From: Candidatus Hadarchaeales archaeon
Lineage (GTDB): Archaea > Hadarchaeota > Hadarchaeia > Hadarchaeales > Hadarchaeaceae
Reading direction: 5' to 3'
Length of the DNA stretch: 32,000 bases
Assembly (NCBI GenBank): GCA_038823825.1
Contig: JAWBCC010000001.1
Coordinates: 300,001-332,000, forward strand
The number at the start of each line of letters is the position of its first letter. Positions within the stretch are counted from its first letter, which is position 1. The notes below the pieces were generated by a model. It ran no database searches. It was not told the DNA's origin and saw only the letters and a program-made list of their open reading frames with translations. This document shows positions 7,153 through 28,360 of this stretch, in pieces. The position numbers and the translations under genes are program-made.

Positions 7153-7823
7153 AACCTCGTGTTCTACAGATTCCAGGATCATTTTTCGGTTCAAATGTTT
7201 ACGTCATATTTGATGAAAAGACAGCGATAATTGACGCTGGGCTCCCGGAAGATTTTATGCGCATCTCGCGGACGATGGAGAAAAATGGTCTAAATCCGGC
7301 TGACTTGGATTTTATCATAAATACGCATTGTCATTTCGATCATACCGGCGGAGATTTCATGTTTGTTAGACTTTCCGGCTGTTTGGTTTTTGCTCACAAG
7401 AACGATAGCGATGTTATAGAAAGAGGAGACGATGTTATTTCCTGTGCAAAAATTTTCAGAAGCAAGCTTGTTCCAGTTCGCGTTGAAAAAAGACTTGTTG
7501 ACGGCGACGAAATTTGTTTGGGCAACTGGACGTTGAAGATTTTACACACTCCGGGACACACTGCCGGTAGTATATGCATTTTGTTACCAGAGGAAGGAAT
7601 TCTGTTCAGCGGAGATACAGTTTTTGCTGATGGATTTGGAAGAACGGATCTACCAACCGGAAATCCACATGATTTGGTAATGTCTCTTCGTCGCTTACTT
7701 TCAGAACCATTTAGTCTGATTTTTCCAGGCCACGGTGAAATATCCAAAGACGGAAAAGAGAGTATCAAACGGGCATTGGAGCTAGTGAGAAGATATGCAG
7801 AAACCGAGAGATATTTTGAATAA
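7149..7823 (+). CDS. MBL-fold metallo-hydrolase (glyoxalase II-like)
   Basis: 224 aa. It carries the HxHxDH motif (NTHCHFDHTGG), then HTPGHTAGS and a downstream D/H (GDTVFADGFGRTD, PGHG). Its start overlaps the DUF72 stop as ATGA. Confidence 0.88.
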   Translation: MKPRVLQIPGSFFGSNVYVIFDEKTAIIDAGLPEDFMRISRTMEKNGLNPADLDFIINTHCHFDHTGGDFMFVRLSGCLVFAHKNDSDVIERGDDVISCAKIFRSKLVPVRVEKRLVDGDEICLGNWTLKILHTPGHTAGSICILLPEEGILFSGDTVFADGFGRTDLPTGNPHDLVMSLRRLLSEPFSLIFPGHGEISKDGKESIKRALELVRRYAETERYFE

Positions 7824-8070
7824 GTTGAAGTGGCATGAAAGAAATCTGGAGAGGGCGAAAATAACTATTCTACACCGTGGAGCTGCAAATGATCAAAAGG
7901 TGATCTCCGGAGCTGAAATCATCTCTCTTTCTAGAGGCTACATGGTCGTGCAGAGCGCAGGAGGAGAATTAGAAATCCCATATCACAGAATTCTGCAGAT
8001 AGAAGTGGATGGAAAGATGATTTGGAGCAGAGAGTTTGTCAGAAAATCCAAGAAAAGTTCACGAATTTAA
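7795..8070 (+). CDS. DUF504 / UPF0248 (MJ1316-type domain) protein
   Basis: 91 aa. LNKLKWHE at the N-terminus and the IPYHRI motif near the C-terminus fit the small archaeal DUF504 family as I remember it. It overlaps the 3' end of the MBL gene by 29 nt. Confidence 0.6.
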   Translation: MQKPRDILNKLKWHERNLERAKITILHRGAANDQKVISGAEIISLSRGYMVVQSAGGELEIPYHRILQIEVDGKMIWSREFVRKSKKSSRI

Positions 8071-12825: not shown

Positions 12826-12883
12826 CAATTGTTTGCGTAATCATTCCTAAAAAGGATGAGATTATCACTATTTTGTGAAGGAT

Positions 12884-13642
12884 ATGCTAGCAAAGCGCAT
12901 AATACCATGCTTAGATGTAAATAAAGGAAGGGTTGTCAAAGGCATTAAATTTCAAAATCTAAGAGAAGCTGGCGATCCTGCAGAGTTGGCAAAGTTTTAT
13001 GAAGAGCAAGGTGCAGACGAAATAGTTTTTCTAGATATAGGAGCCTCGCCAGAAGGAAGAGAAGCGATGTTCGATGTTGTAAGACGTACCGCAGAAACTT
13101 TGTTTGTTCCTTTAACAGTTGGTGGTGGGATGAGATCCATAAACGACATAGAGCGAATGCTGAAGAGCGGGGCCGATAAAGTAGCTATAAATACGGCCGC
13201 GGTCGAGAATCCCCAGCTCGTGAAGCTAGCATCAGAGAAATTCGGCAGCCAGTGTATTGTCATCGCGATTGATGCGAAGTCGGTGGGGAAGGATAAATGG
13301 GAGGTTTATACATACGGAGGAAGAAAGCCTACAGGTCTCGACGCGATTGAATGGGCAAGAAAGGTTGAAAAACTTGGAGCCGGAGAAATCCTCCTAACGA
13401 GTATGGATGCAGACGGCACTCAACAGGGATATGATATTCCCCTTACGAAAGCCGTGTGTGAAGCCGTGAATATTCCGGTTATTGCATCTGGTGGAGCTGG
13501 AACTCTCGAGCACATTTATGAAGTTTTTGTCAAGACTTCCGCGGATGCGGCTCTCGCAGCCAGCATTTTTCATTTTGGTAAGTATACAGTCGGAGATGTA
13601 AAACGCTATTTGATGGAAAGAGGAATACCAGTGAGGAGCTGA
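12884..13642 (+). CDS. hisF: Imidazole glycerol phosphate synthase, cyclase subunit
   Basis: Motifs [53 protein letters not shown] and ALAASIFHF match HisF. The ATG at 12884 is preferred over the GTG at 12875. Confidence 0.95.
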
Positions 13643-13644
13643 AG

Positions 13645-14241
13645 ATGGTTAAAATTTCCATCGTCGATTATGGAGTGGGAAATCTGCACAGTATAAGAAA
13701 AGCTATTGAATTCTCGGGAGCAAAAGTTTTGGTCACAAAAGATCCAAAAATTTTGAGAGGCTGCGATGCAATAGTTTTGCCCGGGGTGGGGGCTTTTAGT
13801 GGGGCAATGAGCGAAATGCCAAAAGAAATCGTCATTGAAGAAGCGCTCTCGGGGAAGCCGATTTTCGGAATTTGTCTTGGAATGCAACTTCTCTTTGAGT
13901 ATAACGAAGAGGGAAATGGAAATGGTCTCTGTCTTGTGAAGGGGAGAGTTGTGAGATTACCCAATACGGTGAAGATACCACACATAGGATGGAACATAGT
14001 TGAGATAGTGAAAAATCATCCGATCGTCAAAGAAATTCCGGCACAAGTTTACATGTATTTTGTGCATTCTTATTATGTTCAAGCGAAGGACAAGGAGATC
14101 TCGCTCGCGAATAGCAAATATGGTGTGGAGTTTCCTTCCATAATCGCATCAGAAAACATTTTCGGCACTCAGTTCCATCCAGAGAAAAGCGGCGTGCATG
14201 GTCTCAAAATCATAAAGAATTTCGTAAGTCTTTTAAAGTGA
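13645..14241 (+). CDS. hisH: Imidazole glycerol phosphate synthase, glutamine amidotransferase subunit
   Basis: It shows the class I GATase triad context (GICLGMQ, FVHSYY, FGTQFHPEKS). The start is 2 nt after the hisF stop, with a GAGGAG SD. Confidence 0.93.
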   Translation: MVKISIVDYGVGNLHSIRKAIEFSGAKVLVTKDPKILRGCDAIVLPGVGAFSGAMSEMPKEIVIEEALSGKPIFGICLGMQLLFEYNEEGNGNGLCLVKGRVVRLPNTVKIPHIGWNIVEIVKNHPIVKEIPAQVYMYFVHSYYVQAKDKEISLANSKYGVEFPSIIASENIFGTQFHPEKSGVHGLKIIKNFVSLLK

Positions 14242-21634: not shown

Positions 21635-22084
21635 TCATGGTTCCACAAAGGAGGTCTCCTTTTCAGTTTTCAGGACCACGAATGTTTTACTGCCGCTTAT
21701 CCCTGGCAGCTTGTCGATTTCGTGTAGAAAGACATTCAGCTGTTCGGTGTCGCTCACGATGACCTTTAAGAGTAAATCATGTTCACCAGCCATTTCATGA
21801 ATCTCAAGGATCTCCGGTCTTTCACGAAGTTTTCCGATAACCTCCGGACACGCACCTGGCTCGGTAGAAACGCCAACGAACGCTTTCAGTCCCTTACCTA
21901 GCATTTTAGGATCGACAATTGCGCAGATTCTCTTTATTACGCCTCTTCTCTTGAGCTCCTTCAGTCTTTTGTGGACGGCCGCCTTGCTTATCCCCAATTT
22001 GGCGGAAATCTGTGAATAAGGTGTTTCGGCATTTTCTTGCAGGATTTTCAATATTCTTCTATCGAGCTCGTCGAGTTCTCGCAT
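21635..22084 (-). CDS. Lrp/AsnC family transcriptional regulator
   Basis: 149 aa. An N-terminal wHTH (LDRRILKILQENAETPYSQISAKLGISKAAVHKRLKELKRRGVI) is followed by a C-terminal RAM/ACT-like domain (EILEIHEMAGEHDLLLKV). Confidence 0.92.
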   Translation of the reverse strand: MRELDELDRRILKILQENAETPYSQISAKLGISKAAVHKRLKELKRRGVIKRICAIVDPKMLGKGLKAFVGVSTEPGACPEVIGKLRERPEILEIHEMAGEHDLLLKVIVSDTEQLNVFLHEIDKLPGISGSKTFVVLKTEKETSFVEP

Positions 22085-22128: not shown

Positions 22129-22164
22129 GTAAACAAAATTTACTAAACATCTCATTTTAGTAAA
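22129..22164. promoter_or_regulatory. Nested palindromes, candidate Lrp-family operator
   Basis: Two palindromes share a half-site. The first is GTAAA-caaaa-TTTAC (22129-22143). The second is TTTACTAAA-N8-TTTAGTAAA (22139-22164). They lie between the lrp TATA and the TTTATATAT element of the his operon. Confidence 0.45.
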
Positions 22165-22165
22165 C

Positions 22166-22174
22166 TTTATATAT
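22166..22174 (+). promoter_or_regulatory. TATA box candidate (TTTATATAT) for the twin-GGGGD gene / his operon
   Basis: It is centred about 34 nt upstream of the ATG at 22204, and a GGAGGTGA SD sits at 22193-22200. The spacing between TATA, SD and ATG is slightly tight, so the TSS is uncertain. Confidence 0.4.
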
Positions 22175-22203
22175 CGAGGAAAAGATATCGTCGGAGGTGA
22201 AAA

Positions 22204-23124
22204 ATGGTGCCGAAAGGGGTGTCTGCTGCTCTAGTAGTCGGGATAGGCGGAGGAGGAGACATAGTGAGCGCGATACCTGTCCGTAATTACCTGAAAAGAC
22301 TCGGCATCAGAGTTTTACTCGGAGGATTAACTTGGGAAAGATATGTTGTTGATCCACAACCCGGGCCACGCAAGCTTTCAGAGATTCAGAATATCGAGCC
22401 ACTTTCTGAAACTTCTGCATTGGCATCGTCTGCCACCGTTTCTACTAAGGGCATCCGTTTCACGGCCTCGAAAGTTTCAGAGTTTCTTGGAGAAAAGGTA
22501 CTGCTTTTGGATCCAAATCTTGGTGTCCGTGGTTTGATTCGTGGAATTTCTGCAGCCATTAAAAAATTTAATCTCGATATGGTTGTTGGAGTGGACGGAG
22601 GCGGAGATGTGCTGATTTCAGGAGAAGAGAAAAACATACGCAGTCCTCTTCTTGACAGCATGATGCTTGCCACGCTAGCTTCACTTGATTCTGCCACTCT
22701 TCTAGCGGTGATTGGCTGTTGTACCGATGGAGAACTCACGTTAGAGGAGTTTATGCGCCAGTTGGCTAGAATAGCGAGATTCGGCGGGCTTATAGGAGCA
22801 TTTGGTTTGGTTAAGGAGGACGCAGAAATGATGGAAAGAATAGTACCAAATACTTCTTCAGAGGTGAGTAGACTAATTCTGGCAGCTTGGAGAGGAGAGT
22901 TTGGATGTTTCAAAATTCGTGGTGGAACGAGAGAAGCTGAGGTGACACCGTTTGCAACTATCACTTTTCTGATAGACCCCATTGTGGTCTTTCGTGAGGT
23001 GAACCCTGTTGCAAAACAACTGGTCGAAACGGAATCTCTGGAGGAAGCAAACGAAGTATTGCGGAAAGCAGGTCTATTCACCGAGCTAGATTTTGAAAGG
23101 TCATTAAAAGGTGGTGATCTATGA
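22204..23124 (+). CDS. Conserved hypothetical protein with twin GGGGD loops (possibly DUF1152 family)
   Basis: 306 aa. It has two glycine-rich motifs, VVGIGGGGDIVSA and VVGVDGGGDVLISG. The start has a strong SD, and the stop overlaps the hisC ATG as ATGA. The family name is from memory and unverified. Confidence 0.8.
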   Translation: MVPKGVSAALVVGIGGGGDIVSAIPVRNYLKRLGIRVLLGGLTWERYVVDPQPGPRKLSEIQNIEPLSETSALASSATVSTKGIRFTASKVSEFLGEKVLLLDPNLGVRGLIRGISAAIKKFNLDMVVGVDGGGDVLISGEEKNIRSPLLDSMMLATLASLDSATLLAVIGCCTDGELTLEEFMRQLARIARFGGLIGAFGLVKEDAEMMERIVPNTSSEVSRLILAAWRGEFGCFKIRGGTREAEVTPFATITFLIDPIVVFREVNPVAKQLVETESLEEANEVLRKAGLFTELDFERSLKGGDL

Positions 23125-24203
23125 TATCTCCGACGAAAAAAGTAAAAAAATTTTTCAAGTCTGGAGCAACATACCCATATTCTTCGGCTTATGGTGAAAA
23201 AGCTGAGGAGTACATAAATCTATCCTCGAACGAGAGTCCTTATGGTCCCTCTCCGAGCATAAAAAGGTTGATTAAAAAAGAAATCACCAAACTCTCGCTC
23301 TATCCCGATCCGGCTTGCACAGAACTCAAACGAGAAATTTCAAAATTTTTGGAAGTTTCTCCAGACTGTTTAGTCATAGGAAATGGCTCCGATGAAATAA
23401 TGGACCTTGTCTGCAAGGCTTTTCTAGAAGAGGGAGAGAAAGTCTTCATTCCTTTGCCATCATTTGCTATTTATGAAATGGTCAGCCGGCTTTACGGTGG
23501 ATGTTTGAGATTCTACAAATTGCCAAAGTTTGAATGGAGAAATGACATAGCTTCGAAAGCCCGAGGATGCAAGTTAGCATTTGTTGGCAGACCAAACAAT
23601 CCGACCGGTAATCTTCCACCAAAATCTTTGGTAGAAAAGATCTCCAAAATGGTCGGAATTCTCGTCATAGACGAAGCATACATCGAATTTTCGGACGAGG
23701 AGTCTCTCGCGAAATGGGCTTCTGAGCAATCAAACGTGCTAGTATTAAGAACTTTTTCGAAGGCCTTCGGCTTGGCTGGTTTGAGAATAGGTTACGGGGT
23801 TGGAAATCCCAAGCTAGTTCAGCTTCTGGATGCAATAAGGTTGCCGTTCAACATAAACAGAATCGCGCAAGCAGCCGCAATAGCAGCTCTGCGGGATAAA
23901 AAATACTTTGAGAGAGTAGTTCGAATAATAAAAAGCGAACGGGAAAAAATGGCAAAAGAATTGAAATCTTTGGGTCTGAGGCCGTTACCTTCTCAAGCTA
24001 ACTTTTTAATGGTCGATGTAAAACCTTGGAATGTGAACGCGGAAGATTTCTGTAAAATGCTCATGAGGAAAAAAATTCTCGTTCGCAGTCTTGTAAACTT
24101 TAGAGGAGCGGGAGAGAACTTCGTGAGGATAACGATAGGAAGCCCGGAGCAAAACAGAGAGCTGATCGCAGCTCTTAAGGAACTTAGGAGGAATTTGTCA
24201 TGA
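23121..24203 (+). CDS. hisC: Histidinol-phosphate aminotransferase
   Basis: Motifs LSSNESPYGPSP, YPDP, NPTGN, DEAYIEF and the PLP-lysine context RTFSKAFGLAGLRIGY match HisC. Confidence 0.93.
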   Translation: MISPTKKVKKFFKSGATYPYSSAYGEKAEEYINLSSNESPYGPSPSIKRLIKKEITKLSLYPDPACTELKREISKFLEVSPDCLVIGNGSDEIMDLVCKAFLEEGEKVFIPLPSFAIYEMVSRLYGGCLRFYKLPKFEWRNDIASKARGCKLAFVGRPNNPTGNLPPKSLVEKISKMVGILVIDEAYIEFSDEESLAKWASEQSNVLVLRTFSKAFGLAGLRIGYGVGNPKLVQLLDAIRLPFNINRIAQAAAIAALRDKKYFERVVRIIKSEREKMAKELKSLGLRPLPSQANFLMVDVKPWNVNAEDFCKMLMRKKILVRSLVNFRGAGENFVRITIGSPEQNRELIAALKELRRNLS

Positions 24204-25066
24204 CAGAAATTCTGCTGGCGATACCTAACAAAGGCAGGCTCTATGAACCAACCATGAGATTGCTCGAAGATGCCGGATTTGGCTCAATAGACAGAGGGGA
24301 AAGGCAGCTTTTTGCAAAAACAAGAGATCCTTCGGTTATGCTGGTTTTTGCCAGAGCCCAAGACATACCGAAACTCGTAGAAAGAGGAGCAATGGATTTG
24401 GGAATCACAGGTTTGGATCTGGTGATCGAGAGTGGATCGAAGCTGGTTGAACTTCTCGATTTGGAATACGGAAAGGCAAAATTAGTTGTCGCAGTGAGCG
24501 AATCTTCAGGCATAAAAAAGATATCAGATATCCCAGCAGGTAGCCGGGTAGCAACCGAGTTTCCAAAAATAGCTTCAGAGTTTTTCAAGAAAAAGAAAAT
24601 CAGAGTTGAAATTTCAGAGATCTCAGGATCAGCAGAAATAACACCCCTGATAGGAATGGCAGACTTGGTGGTGGATCTCGTCAGTACCGGTACCACAATG
24701 AAGATGCACGGTTTGACGATTATCGAGGAAATTTTAGACACGTCAGCCAGGTTATTTGCGAATCCAACCAGCCTGAAAAATAAACGTCAGAAAATCGAGC
24801 AAATAAAAACGGCGATCGAGAGTGTCGTGAGAGCTAGAGGAAAAAAGCTGATCCTTATGAACATTCCGGCCGAAAAGCTTGATGAGATTAAGAAAATCGT
24901 TCCAGGAATGTCAGGTCCAACGGTTTCGAAGGTTGAGGCCGAAGTCCCCATGCTCGCGATTCAGGCGGTGGTGGAAGCCCAAAGAGTGGACGAAGTAGTT
25001 CGGCGAGCAAAACAGGTTGGAGCGAGAGATATTCTAGTAGTCCCTATCGAGCGCGTTCTTCCGTAG
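24200..25066 (+). CDS. hisG: ATP phosphoribosyltransferase (long form)
   Basis: Motifs LLAIPNKGRL, DLGITGLD and DLVSTGTTM, plus a C-terminal regulatory domain of about 80 aa. It overlaps hisC as ATGA. Confidence 0.93.
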   Translation: MTEILLAIPNKGRLYEPTMRLLEDAGFGSIDRGERQLFAKTRDPSVMLVFARAQDIPKLVERGAMDLGITGLDLVIESGSKLVELLDLEYGKAKLVVAVSESSGIKKISDIPAGSRVATEFPKIASEFFKKKKIRVEISEISGSAEITPLIGMADLVVDLVSTGTTMKMHGLTIIEEILDTSARLFANPTSLKNKRQKIEQIKTAIESVVRARGKKLILMNIPAEKLDEIKKIVPGMSGPTVSKVEAEVPMLAIQAVVEAQRVDEVVRRAKQVGARDILVVPIERVLP

Positions 25067-25074
25067 GTGACGGC

Positions 25075-25788
25075 ATGCTTATCATCCCGGCAGTAGACAT
25101 AAGCCAAGGAAGGTGCGTACAGCTGGTGGAGGGAAAGATAGAAACCGCGAAGATCTACGGAGACCCTGTTGAGTGGGCGAAGAATTGGCAAAGAGAAGGG
25201 GCAAAATGCTTGCACGTGGTGGATCTCGATGCAGCACTCGGCTTAGGGGACAATCTGGGAAAGATTTTGGAGATTCTTAGCGAAATCAAAATTCCAGTCC
25301 AAGTAGGTGGAGGGATAAGAACTCTCGAAAGAGCAAAATCGCTGATAATGGCCGGAGCCAAGCGTTTAGCAGTTGGAACAATCGCAATTAGGAATCCGGA
25401 GCTCTTGGACGCGCTTATCAGCGAATTTGGAGGGAAAAAATTGGTTATAGCAATTGACTCTAGACGTGGAAAGATAGCTGTGGAGGGGTGGCAGAAAACG
25501 GTAGATCTAAGTCCTCAGGAAACTGTGAAAAATTTTGAGAAGAAAGGCGTTTGGGGTTTCCTTTTCACTTGCGTAGACGTGGAGGGGAAAATGTCTGGAG
25601 TAGATATAGAAGAAACGAGAAAGCTGGTTTCTTTGACAAATCTGCCTGTTATAGCGTCTGGGGGCGTCGGAAATCTCGATGATATACGAAAACTGAAATC
25701 GACTGGAGTCTATGGAGTGATCATCGGAAAGACGTTATATGATGGGAGATTTAGTTTGCAAGAGGCGATGGAGGTAGCGTCAACATGA
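25075..25788 (+). CDS. hisA: ProFAR isomerase
   Basis: Motifs MLIIPAVDISQGRCVQLVEG, VQVGGGIR, IASGGVG and VIIGKTLYDG match HisA. Confidence 0.93.
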   Translation: MLIIPAVDISQGRCVQLVEGKIETAKIYGDPVEWAKNWQREGAKCLHVVDLDAALGLGDNLGKILEILSEIKIPVQVGGGIRTLERAKSLIMAGAKRLAVGTIAIRNPELLDALISEFGGKKLVIAIDSRRGKIAVEGWQKTVDLSPQETVKNFEKKGVWGFLFTCVDVEGKMSGVDIEETRKLVSLTNLPVIASGGVGNLDDIRKLKSTGVYGVIIGKTLYDGRFSLQEAMEVAST

Positions 25789-26354
25789 GAGATTGCACAG
25801 TTCACCGCAAAACGAAGGAAACGGACATAAAGGTAAAAATCAACTTAGACGGTTCAGGGAAATCTTCTATTGAAACCGGAATCGAATTTTTAAATCACAT
25901 GTTGGCGTCCATGGCAAAGCACGGACGATTTGACCTAGAGGTGACTGCTACTGGTGATTTGAAGCACCACATTGTGGAAGATGTTGCCATATGTCTTGGT
26001 CTGGCTGTGGACAAAGCGCTTGGAGAAAAGAAAGACATAGCGAGGATAGGAACTGCGGTAGTTCCAATGGATGACGCCTTGGTTCTCGTTGCTGTCGATC
26101 TGAGCGGTAGGGCCTATTCAGACATATCTCTTAAGGCCAAGGCTAGGAAAATCGAGGACATAAGTGCAGATCTTTTGGAACATTTCCTAGATACTTTTGC
26201 GAAAAATGGGAGATTTAATCTTCACGTTATTGTTTTAAAGGGCAAGAATGATCACCACAAGATTGAGGCGGCTTTCAAGGCTTTGGGGGCAGCGCTTCGA
26301 GAAGCAGTAAAACAAATCGGAGGAGGTATCCCGAGCACAAAGGGTGTACTCTAG
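25785..26354 (+). CDS. hisB: Imidazoleglycerol-phosphate dehydratase (monofunctional)
   Basis: Motifs RKTKETDIKV, FLNHML, HHIVEDVAI, DDAL and NDHHKIEAAFKA match IGPD. At 189 aa there is no fused phosphatase domain. Confidence 0.93.
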   Translation: MRDCTVHRKTKETDIKVKINLDGSGKSSIETGIEFLNHMLASMAKHGRFDLEVTATGDLKHHIVEDVAICLGLAVDKALGEKKDIARIGTAVVPMDDALVLVAVDLSGRAYSDISLKAKARKIEDISADLLEHFLDTFAKNGRFNLHVIVLKGKNDHHKIEAAFKALGAALREAVKQIGGGIPSTKGVL

Positions 26355-27653
26355 ATGATGAGAGTGGTAGAGCTTTCAAAATGCTCTCCAAAAGAACGGA
26401 AAGAGCTTTTGAAGAGATCTGAGATTCGCATAGAATCTGTTCTCCGCGACGTCGCAAAGATAGTTGATGATGTGAGAAGAAGGGGTGACAGAGCATTGCT
26501 GGAGTATACAAAGAAATTCGATAAAGTAACGATTTTCCAAAAGAGGCTTAGGGTATCTGAAGATGAAATAGAGCAGGCGGTTAGGGCTTGTGATGAAGAG
26601 ACAATCAAAGCCTTGGAAAATCTGGCTCGTGCAATTCGTAAATTTCACCTGAAACAACTTCCAAGGGAATGGTTTGCCGAAATCTCGAAAGGAGTAACTT
26701 TAGGTCAAGTCTTAAGGCCGTTAGACAGAGTGGGGGTCTATGTTCCTGGAGGACAAGCTAGATATCCATCTACTCTTCTGATGGGAACGGTTCCGGCAAA
26801 GGTGGCCGGTGTGAAGGAAGTAATAGTTTGCACGCCGCCAATGCGCGACGGAAGTGTCAATTCTGTAATTCTGGCTGCGGCAAAGATAGCGAAAGTGGAT
26901 GCAGTTTTCCGAGTAGGTGGAGCTCAAGCAATCGCGGCAATGGCATACGGCACCGAAAGTATTCCAAAAGTTGATAAAATTGTTGGTCCCGGCAATATCT
27001 ACGTCTCCGCTGCCAAAAGGTTGGTCTCATCCGTTGTCGATGTGGATTTTGAAGCCGGGCCAACTGAATTGCTCATCGTCGCTGATGAGAGCGCCAGTCC
27101 AGTTTTTCTTGCTGCAGACATCATCGCTCAAGCGGAACACGACGTGGAAGCCGCCTGCGTGCTCGTTACCACGAGTCGCGATCTAGCAAGAGAAACGCAA
27201 AAATGGATTATGAAACTTTTGGTCGAAATCCCTCGAAAAAATATAGTTATAGAGTCTCTCAATAGACGCGGATTGATAGTTTTAGTAAAAAATCTTCAGG
27301 AAGCAATAGATTTTGCGAACGATTACGCTCCGGAACATTTGGAGCTTGTTGTGAAGAATTCCAAGAAATATCTCAAAAAAGTCAGAAACGCTGGAGCGAT
27401 ATTCTTAGGTAGCTTTTCTCCGGTAGCTGTTGGAGACTTGGCTTCCGGACCGAACCACATTCTCCCCACTGGAGGTAAAGCGAGATTTCGTTCAGGGCTT
27501 TCGGTTTTAGATTTTCTGAAGATTTTGAGTGTTCAAGAGCTCACTAGAAAGGGCTTAAAACGATTGGCTCCGATCGTTAATGCGATCGCTAAGGTTGAGG
27601 ATCTTGAGGCGCATTCTTTAAGCGTAAAGGTGAGACTTCAAAGGGAGGATTAA
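26355..27653 (+). CDS. hisD: Histidinol dehydrogenase
   Basis: 432 aa. Motifs YVPGGQARYPSTLLM, GGAQAIAAMAYGT, GPGNIYV, AQAEHD, APEHLEL and GPNHILPT match HisD. Confidence 0.95.
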   Translation: MMRVVELSKCSPKERKELLKRSEIRIESVLRDVAKIVDDVRRRGDRALLEYTKKFDKVTIFQKRLRVSEDEIEQAVRACDEETIKALENLARAIRKFHLKQLPREWFAEISKGVTLGQVLRPLDRVGVYVPGGQARYPSTLLMGTVPAKVAGVKEVIVCTPPMRDGSVNSVILAAAKIAKVDAVFRVGGAQAIAAMAYGTESIPKVDKIVGPGNIYVSAAKRLVSSVVDVDFEAGPTELLIVADESASPVFLAADIIAQAEHDVEAACVLVTTSRDLARETQKWIMKLLVEIPRKNIVIESLNRRGLIVLVKNLQEAIDFANDYAPEHLELVVKNSKKYLKKVRNAGAIFLGSFSPVAVGDLASGPNHILPTGGKARFRSGLSVLDFLKILSVQELTRKGLKRLAPIVNAIAKVEDLEAHSLSVKVRLQRED

Positions 27654-27655
27654 GG

Positions 27656-27934
27656 ATGGGAACCGAGATTTTGGATGAAATATTCGAGGTAATACTCGAT
27701 CGAAAAAGAAATCCGAAACCCGACTCCTATGTTTCTAAACTTCTTTCTACTGGAGAAGCCAGCGACAAGGTTCTAGAAGAGGCAAGTGAACTAGTTGAGG
27801 CAGCAAGAGAAAAGGAGAAGAAGGAAATAATACACGAAGCAGCGGATTTAATTTTCCACACATTGGTTTTGATGGCCGAGAAAGATGTTCACATAGCTGA
27901 AGTAATGGATGAACTTAAAAAAAGGCGCAGGTAA
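27656..27934 (+). CDS. hisE: Phosphoribosyl-ATP pyrophosphatase
   Basis: 92 aa. SYVSKLL, KVLEEASELVEAA and EAADLIFHTLVLM are typical of the MazG-like HisE. Confidence 0.9.
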   Translation: MGTEILDEIFEVILDRKRNPKPDSYVSKLLSTGEASDKVLEEASELVEAAREKEKKEIIHEAADLIFHTLVLMAEKDVHIAEVMDELKKRRR

Positions 27935-27958
27935 TCAAAAGCCGGGGCGTGGAGTGTG

Positions 27959-28360
27959 ATGAAACTTTCGGAGAAACGGGCGAACGATGTTATCAAAAGG
28001 CTCAAATTCAGAAACGGATTAGTTTTAGCTGTTGTCTGCGATTCAAAGACAAAGGAAATTTTGATGGTTGGGTATCAAAATCGCGAAGCGGTTAAGCGTT
28101 CTTTTACAGAAGGTAGAATGTACTTCTGGAGCAGAGAGAGAAGAAAACTTTGGCTGAAAGGTGAGACATCAGGACATTTCCAATACATAGAGCGAATAAG
28201 AATTGACTGTGATGGAGATGCAATTTTATATTACGTGAAACAAGTGGGGGGAGCTTGCCACGAAGGTTACAAGAGCTGCTTTTATCGTGAATTAACACGA
28301 GAAGGCATCAAAGTAGTGGAGAAAAAGATCTTCGATCCAGAAAAAGTTTACAGGTCCTAG
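27959..28360 (+). CDS. hisI: Phosphoribosyl-AMP cyclohydrolase
   Basis: Motifs WSRERRKLWLKGETSGHFQ, IDCDGDAILY and GGACHEGYKSCFYR match HisI. The ATG at 27959 follows an in-frame GTG at 27956. Confidence 0.92.
   Translation: MKLSEKRANDVIKRLKFRNGLVLAVVCDSKTKEILMVGYQNREAVKRSFTEGRMYFWSRERRKLWLKGETSGHFQYIERIRIDCDGDAILYYVKQVGGACHEGYKSCFYRELTREGIKVVEKKIFDPEKVYRS

Follow-up and report, generated by a model that had tools for sequence, protein, structure and literature searches.

Why does the histidine operon of a hadarchaeon open with a gene from a family that has no assigned function, and could that gene supply the one enzyme that the pathway otherwise lacks? The locus lies in a 32,000-nucleotide stretch of DNA from a Candidatus Hadarchaeales archaeon (contig JAWBCC010000001.1, positions 300,001 to 332,000 of the forward strand; assembly GCA_038823825.1), hereafter the window, and the genome that contains it is referred to as G000. 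An open reading frame at 22204-23124 encodes a 306-residue protein of the DUF1152 family (PF06626) and directly precedes hisC; the original prediction had put it forward as a candidate for the missing histidinol-phosphate phosphatase (HolPase) or for another his-linked role. Our analysis lowers the probability that DUF1152 is the HolPase. The reading we favour, with about even confidence, is that DUF1152 is a hydrolase or transferase that binds metal together with a phosphate or nucleotide, acts on a common small metabolite and is co-regulated with histidine biosynthesis but not required for it.

Under this proposal a general housekeeping enzyme would have been captured in an Lrp-controlled his operon, an event specific to Hadarchaeota. 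DUF1152 would share the operon's only recognisable promoter and be coupled translationally to hisC, so that it would be made whenever the histidine enzymes are made, yet it would be a dispensable passenger in the operon and not a dedicated pathway step. We lean towards a passenger because the operon outlives deletion or decay of the gene, because relatives that have no histidine genes retain the same orthologue, because it co-occurs with other HolPase candidates, and because linkage to his genes is absent outside Hadarchaeota and giant viruses encode DUF1152 proteins. The HolPase of this genome would more probably be an unassigned PHP or HAD hydrolase, for example the PRK08392-like PHP protein encoded at C3:12598-13284.

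Loss from intact operons and retention without histidine genes

Gene presence was surveyed in 66 Hadarchaeota genomes, and the his operon was compared in 49. DUF1152 occurs in 35 genomes, hisD in 54, a short PHP protein that matches NF004981 above cut-off in 19 and a gene of the IMPase family in 14. Four states of the operon head are found among the 49 genomes: DUF1152, DUF1152 with PHP, PHP alone, and neither. The arrangement lrp<->DUF1152->hisC is present in 13 genomes, this one included, and lrp<->DUF1152->PHP->hisC in five more (G010, G041, G050, G053 and G054), so that DUF1152 stands at the operon head in at least 18 genomes from about 10 genera. PHP->hisC is the arrangement of family f5, G049 and G052; lrp<->hisC, with the rest of the his genes intact, is that of G025, G022, G023, G005, G008 and G011. 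The operon PHP (NF004981/PRK06361; 218-233 residues, as at L016:3710-4366, L021:10478-11179, L022:3295-3960 and L048:3089-3763) scores 281-300 bits against NF004981, and G000 lacks an orthologue of it; the G049 copy contains an in-frame TGA.

What remains where DUF1152 is missing? The lrp-hisC spacer of G005, a member of genus g2, holds a DUF1152 relic (L093, about 7634-7955) of 46 residues with 52% identity to the N-terminus (E 1e-8), in which GIGGGGD has become GIDGEGE, and a weaker relic lies in the same spacer of G008. In G022, G023 and G025, which belong to the DUF1152-lacking sub-clade g6a of genus g6, the start of the gene survives, with a C-terminal fragment in G023 and, more weakly, in G025. 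G011 has a clean deletion of DUF1152 behind the same promoter. From the relics in the lrp-hisC spacers, DUF1152 was ancestral at the operon head and has been lost secondarily at least three times, with the other nine genes left intact. Besides L093, the loci whose spacers carry relics are L092, L089 and L094.

The six genomes of genus g2 (up to 95% complete) contain no DUF1152, no IMPase, no NF004981 protein and no HisJ or HisB-N above cut-off. With neither DUF1152 nor a known HolPase, some unrecognised enzyme must therefore perform the phosphatase step there, and the near-universal PRK08392-like PHP (the L002 type, found in 53 of the 66 genomes, genus g2 included) is one candidate.

The converse pattern, DUF1152 without a histidine pathway, is also found. 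G040 (95% complete), G036 and G001 have DUF1152 and lack hisB, hisG and hisD, and the genomes of L010 (Hadarchaeum yellowstonense YNP_45) and L012 have DUF1152 and lack hisD. We found no alignment position that separates his-linked from unlinked Hadarchaeota DUF1152 proteins, and mean identity is 63.9% within the his-linked set against 65.1% between linked and unlinked proteins. With no discriminating position and the same mean identities, there is no sign of a his-specific subfamily, the orthologue of his-less Hadarchaeum genomes cannot be told apart from the others, and a neofunctionalised his-linked form of DUF1152 is rejected.

Genomic context across the family

Is the link to histidine genes a property of the family or of the phylum? 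We compared 80 named DUF1152 loci with 10-kb flanks, 17 from Hadarchaeota and about 63 from other lineages. The order lrp<->DUF1152->hisC occurs in 13 of the 17 Hadarchaeota loci, and none of the roughly 63 others places DUF1152 inside a his operon. What comes nearest is a trio of related Binatia loci, in which hisG/hisI lie on the other strand at a distance of 1.2 kb, and a single Tectomicrobia locus, in which a hisC-like gene is found about 5.5 kb upstream. The co-occurrence check proposed with the original prediction thus turned out partly in its favour: linkage recurs widely within Hadarchaeota, but is confined to that one phylum.

Elsewhere the neighbourhoods are varied. In 15 bacterial loci (Binatia/deltaproteobacterial; L029, L031, L037, L041, L043, L050 and others) an MFS_1 transporter gene follows about 69 nucleotides downstream on the same strand, the most conserved DUF1152 neighbour outside Hadarchaeota. 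Other bacterial neighbours encode alpha/beta-hydrolase, isochorismatase, VOC, hydantoinase A/B, penicillin amidase and metallo-beta-lactamase proteins, and archaeal neighbours encode Nog1 GTPase, proteasome beta, CCA-adding enzyme, THUMP methyltransferase, geranylgeranyl reductase (GGR) and IlvC. PADLOC gave no link between DUF1152 and defence systems. In three DUF1152-bearing genomes, two of Nitrososphaeria and one of Baldrarchaeum (Asgard), a HAD gene of the nmHisN type, recognised from the description of Nmar_1556 (PMC10804674), lies between hisC and hisB.

A conserved family with a predicted Rossmann-like core

Almost the whole PF06626 profile, from position 1 to 294 of 295, aligns to the window protein (E 2.7e-90; 303 bits, cut-off 27), which bears out the tentative assignment in the original prediction to DUF1152, a family without assigned function. 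No NCBIfam model matches it, a relaxed Pfam scan of 23 family members revealed no second family, and a literature search for DUF1152 or PF06626 by name found no paper. At E<=1e-10 the family comprises about 1,034 clusters at 50% identity, almost all of them single-domain proteins of 300-350 residues. In archaea it extends, among others, over Hadarchaeota, Asgard lineages, Nitrososphaeria, Archaeoglobi, Sulfolobales/Desulfurococcales and Halobacteriales, and in bacteria, among others, over Binatia, Thermodesulfobacteriota, Dadabacteria and Solirubrobacterales. A metagenomic representative of 506 residues (P0120) carries a class II aldolase/adducin domain (PF00596, 156 bits) fused to DUF1152; no other domain fusion appears in the top 150 representatives, and an error of gene calling could account for this one.

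An alignment of 23 DUF1152 sequences spanning archaea and bacteria has 28 invariant columns, and the window protein has all 28: G13, G15-G18, D19, W44, R46, G54, D131, G133, G134, D135, G140, E142, S147, L149, D151, D175, G176, E177, L178, E220, G231, I238, R239, G241 and E294. R56 is conserved in at least 90% of the sequences. Conservation of this kind is what one sees in enzymes. The two glycine-rich loops ending in Asp to which the original prediction drew attention, GIGGGGD (13-19) and DGGGD (131-135), are both there and are invariant across these diverse homologues, and the protein contains every family motif (GxGGGGD, W-E-R, DxGGD, S-x-L-x-D, DGEL, E220, I-R-x-G and E294).

AlphaFold2 models the protein confidently (predicted local distance difference test, pLDDT, 94.8; predicted template modelling score, pTM, 0.93) with a Rossmann-like beta-alpha-beta core and, after it, a small C-terminal domain of alpha/beta type. 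Going by the succession of strands and helices, the acidic and glycine-rich segments that are invariant come after strands 1, 2, 4 and 5. The C-terminal ends of strands are the usual place of the active site in Rossmann-like folds, and the invariant residues may line one pocket for a phosphate-bearing or nucleotide ligand and a divalent metal. Neither the single sequence nor a profile retrieved any sequence relative from the PDB, and Foldseek found no real structural relative there, the best template modelling score (TM-score) being 0.35. The top PDB matches (MshB/LmbE, universal stress protein (USP), MTAN and SurE) reflect a generic Rossmann-like likeness, and no functional reading was based on them. 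Proteins of Klosneuvirinae giant viruses do match the model by Foldseek, with TM-scores of 0.76 and 0.64; the matches in BFVD, A0A3G5AD54, A0A1V0SJT1 and A0A3G4ZPD9, are Klosneuvirinae DUF1152 proteins (Hyperionvirus, Klosneuvirus and Terrestrivirus).

Architecture of the operon in the window

The gene is real and intact, the operon is as compact as the original prediction had described it, and the other facts given there are likewise correct. The features are as follows:

22204-23124, + strand: DUF1152 (PF06626), first cistron; 306 residues, intact; Pfam 303 bits, 28/28 invariant residues, AlphaFold2 pLDDT 94.8
21635-22084, - strand: Lrp/AsnC-family transcription regulator, divergent from the his operon; NCBIfam LysM/LrpA-type matches
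22158-22174, + strand: putative promoter element TAGTAAACTTTATATAT, TATA-like, about 30 nucleotides 5' of the ATG
22193-22199, + strand: Shine-Dalgarno sequence GGAGGTG, 4 nucleotides before the ATG, read from the sequence
23121-24203, + strand: hisC, histidinol-phosphate aminotransferase; TIGR01141, 348 bits against a cut-off of 277
24200-25066, + strand: hisG, long form (HisG + HisG_C); profile match
25075-25788, + strand: hisA; profile match
25785-26354, + strand: hisB, monofunctional imidazoleglycerol-phosphate dehydratase, 189 residues; PF00475 only
26355-27653, + strand: hisD; profile match
27656-27934, + strand: hisE; profile match
27956-28360, + strand: hisI; profile match
12875-14241, + strand: hisF and hisH, in this genus separate from the main operon; profile match

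The strong Shine-Dalgarno sequence and the ATGA at 23121-23124, in which the DUF1152 stop overlaps the hisC start, can both be read directly in the DNA, and downstream the order hisC-G-A-B-D-E-I is chained by overlaps or by gaps of at most 21 nucleotides. With hisF and hisH, which the earlier note had placed at 12.9-14.2 kb, every step of the pathway other than the phosphatase is encoded in the window. HisB, correctly recognised there as a monofunctional dehydratase, aligns with the bifunctional model NF003937 over positions 167-355, and the phosphatase domain is absent. Many Hadarchaeota have hisF placed between hisB and hisD, with hisH between hisD/hisE and hisI; in this genus both are outside the operon, together about 9 kb upstream.

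An Lrp orthologue occupies the same place in 28 related operons, with or without DUF1152. In related operons the motif TAGTAAAATTTATATAC precedes the first cistron, which is DUF1152 where that gene is present and hisC in G011 and G022; it is probably a TATA/BRE element of the Lrp-controlled his promoter. The motif TAGTAAA(A/C)TTTATATA(C/T), at 22158-22174 of the window and at the corresponding position of about 20 related loci, is strongly conserved across Hadarchaeota genera, about 30 nucleotides 5' of the first cistron. DUF1152 is almost certainly co-expressed with the his genes, and we infer that they are co-transcribed.

The phosphatase gap and its candidates

HolPase is the one step of the histidine pathway that has been invented repeatedly. 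The known types are told apart by a DxDxT motif (HAD), His/Asp trinuclear metal motifs (PHP), DPxDGT/WDxAAG (IMPase), and a HAD core with a helical cap and the fingerprint Y24 D25 K/R56 D/E64 (nmHisN/toHisN). The DUF1152 protein of the window belongs to none of them. It is not of the HAD type (HisB-N; TIGR01656/TIGR01261), with no NCBIfam or Pfam match besides DUF1152 even at E<=5; nor of the PHP type (HisJ/K; TIGR01856, PF02811), with no PHP profile match and no PHP protein among its Foldseek matches; nor of the IMPase type (HisN; TIGR02067, PF00459), to which there is no match; and it is unrelated to the nmHisN/toHisN type of HAD protein.

The original prediction had seen no PHP-, HAD- or IMPase-type HolPase gene in the window, and by family cut-offs this holds for the whole of G000 (1.05 Mb in nine contigs, 95.8% complete), all of which was searched. 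No IMPase-family gene (PF00459, IMPase/FBPase) is present anywhere in G000, although 14 of 14 control genomes have one. The genome encodes three PHP proteins, each under the cut-offs of HisJ and NF004981, the best of which is the 229-residue PRK08392-like protein at C3:12598-13284. Its HAD proteins reach 20-24 bits against TIGR01656, with a cut-off of 84. A tblastn search with nmHisN-type proteins from L102, L103 and L105 returned nothing in G000, and no gene of this type was found in the phylum Hadarchaeota either. Three other genomes of the same genus have no IMPase and no NF004981 protein. The HolPase gap is real at genome level, because the whole-genome and same-genus searches found no known type. 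It is also a familiar one, as the earlier note had stated: about two-thirds of histidine-producing archaea have no annotated HolPase gene (PMC10804674).

Which other proteins might close it? Besides the PRK08392-like PHP, G000 encodes two paralogous TIGR02253-like HAD proteins (C2:17214-17906 and C2:48087-48779; 160 and 142 bits against a cut-off of 170), which are further HolPase candidates; an offset-based placement of the nmHisN fingerprint shows no Y-D at the matching position of either. For the lineages that carry it, the operon NF004981 PHP is a strong HolPase candidate.

DUF1152 and HisN-like IMPase

Within Hadarchaeota the IMPase family occurs almost only where DUF1152 is missing, the one observation that speaks for the original prediction. 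Both DUF1152 and IMPase are present in two of the 66 genomes, DUF1152 only in 33, IMPase only in 12 and neither in 19. The two exceptions are special cases: G001 has an IMPase of the NAD-kinase-adjacent FBPase/IMPase type, and the DUF1152 gene of G038 shows no linkage to his genes. It is TIGR02067 (HisN) that gives the Hadarchaeota IMPases their highest scores, 177-192 bits, under the 275-bit cut-off and ahead of FBPase/IMPase, and their genes are not linked to his genes either. In genus g6 an IMPase is present in G016, G022 and G025 and absent from six DUF1152-bearing genomes; in genus g14 it is present in G048, G049 and G052 and absent from G050, G051, G053 and G054; and all members of family f5 have it. 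The tree of His proteins shows swaps between DUF1152 and IMPase within genus g6, within genus g14 (one or two) and in family f5. The IMPase gene of G025 and G022 adjoins panB, and the region around it is syntenic with C4:26-42 kb of G000.

The concatenated HisD+G+B+A tree yields five usable independent pairs. IMPase goes opposite to DUF1152 in two to three of the five and the same way in none, which is not significant (sign test, p>=0.25). A general complementarity of the two families is ruled out outside the phylum, where 39 of 41 DUF1152-bearing genomes have both.

Weighing the explanations

Several observations weigh against our favoured reading of DUF1152 as a co-regulated but dispensable enzyme. 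The phosphatase is the sole gap in the pathway; neither the genome nor the genus has a HolPase of known type, and the PHP and HAD alternatives stand as candidates only. No Hadarchaeota genome with DUF1152 at the head of the his operon has a HisN-like IMPase, four DUF1152-lacking Hadarchaeota lineages do have one, and such a near-complementary pattern is what non-orthologous replacement would produce. The position at the operon head has been kept across about 10 genera at about 50% protein identity. Finally, the ligand and metal chemistry that we propose is deduced from motifs and the order of secondary-structure elements, in a predicted fold that has no PDB relative. The gap, the near-complementary pattern and the conserved position also form part of the case for DUF1152 as a new, non-homologous class of phosphomonoesterase, possibly promiscuous, that supplies the HolPase step in those Hadarchaeota that lack both the operon PHP (NF004981) and the HisN-like IMPase. 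Such an enzyme would be made stoichiometrically with HisC and would dephosphorylate its product, acting on other substrates in his-less relatives. Its place as first cistron, ATGA-coupled to hisC in a conserved arrangement, and its invariant acidic residues and glycine-rich loops would suit this role; the lone Aldolase_II+DUF1152 fusion hints at a sugar-phosphate-type substrate, and the discovery of nmHisN through the same kind of gene context provides a precedent (PMC10804674). The complementarity, however, comes down to two or three informative independent pairs and does not extend beyond the phylum. Genus g2 and G011 have lost DUF1152 with no recognisable substitute, the gene shares an operon with a PHP gene in some relatives and, in other phyla, a genome with a HAD of the nmHisN type, his-less genomes keep it unchanged, giant viruses have it too, and the protein has no similarity to any known phosphatase fold. 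ATGA coupling, for its part, says little about shared function where a genome is 1 Mb in size and many neighbouring genes overlap. The idea that DUF1152 is the missing enzyme therefore keeps the gap and the complementarity within the phylum on its side, but dispensability, retention without histidine genes and coexistence with other candidates tell against it, and we consider it rather unlikely.

DUF1152 might instead serve histidine biosynthesis without being a phosphatase, as an accessory or partner of HisC or of the operon PHP, or by acting on a side product of the pathway. The head lrp<->DUF1152->PHP->hisC is likely ancestral, occurring on deep branches of the His tree (the five genomes listed above), and one promoter serves DUF1152 and the his genes alike. 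That the gene is dispensable, and that it is retained where his genes are missing, weighs equally against such a role, though; DUF1152 and PHP have been lost independently and differ together in at most one to two of the five pairs, with no consistent direction; and, apart from the phosphatase, no known pathway step or cofactor need is left over. We think this improbable. Still further down the scale is a divergent nucleotide-binding protein of the FtsZ/tubulin or PP-loop ATP-pyrophosphatase type, an explanation suggested by the resemblance of the GxGGGGD loop after strand 1 to the FtsZ T1 loop and to the PP-loop SGGxDS, and by Foldseek matches to USP domains with a probability of 0.98 over a 137-residue domain. 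Against the genome's own FtsZ, hhalign aligned 26 columns around the loop with a probability of 12%, and against eight PP-loop proteins of the same genome it gave less than 1%; there is no FtsZ or tubulin among the PDB Foldseek matches, whose best TM-score is the low value given above. FtsZ T1-loop homology, membership of FtsZ/tubulin and homology to PP-loop ATP pyrophosphatases were rejected on these grounds, and this last explanation is largely refuted.

What would follow from each outcome? If DUF1152 did prove to be a further, independently evolved HolPase class with a fold unlike HAD, PHP and IMPase, or a promiscuous phosphomonoesterase with HolPase activity, a prospect that we regard as doubtful, it would close the long-standing gap at the HolPase step for most Hadarchaeota and perhaps for other archaea, Sulfolobales among them, and would bring both a new fold for the step and a function for a family of about 1,000 sequence clusters. 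The more ordinary reading, in which DUF1152 is a co-regulated passenger, would counsel caution against taking translational coupling as functional coupling in very compact genomes. Either way Hadarchaeota, with four states of the operon head, gene relics and a HisN-like IMPase that comes and goes, offer a natural laboratory for the HolPase step, and the analysis nominates the PRK08392-like PHP, the NF004981 PHP and the HisN-like IMPase as alternative candidates for it.

Comparison with known systems

By its full-length match, its complete set of invariant residues, and a length and architecture like those of about 1,000 representative clusters, the window protein is assigned to the known DUF1152 family, which has no assigned function or solved structure. 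It shows no difference from that family at the protein level, and its position in the his operon is special to Hadarchaeota. The closest parallel in gene context is nmHisN (Nmar_1556)/toHisN (PMC10804674), whose discovery likewise started from an uncharacterised gene beside hisC in an archaeal his cluster of a genome without an annotated HolPase. Those proteins are HAD-type, however, whereas DUF1152 is not and bears no relation to them in sequence or fold; nmHisN-type genes are absent from this genome and phylum, and coexist with DUF1152 in Nitrososphaeria and Baldrarchaeum. HisN of the IMPase type (TIGR02067; PMC5516325) is tied to DUF1152 by distribution, the HisN-like IMPase and DUF1152 being near-complementary in Hadarchaeota but not outside the phylum, and differs in its unrelated fold: DUF1152 has no PF00459 match, and the Hadarchaeota IMPases are themselves below the HisN cut-off and not his-linked. 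The short PHP proteins of NF004981/PRK06361 ('histidinol phosphate phosphatase domain-containing protein') belong to yet another superfamily and are absent from G000, but in relatives they share with DUF1152 the place directly upstream of hisC, often standing beside DUF1152 rather than replacing it.

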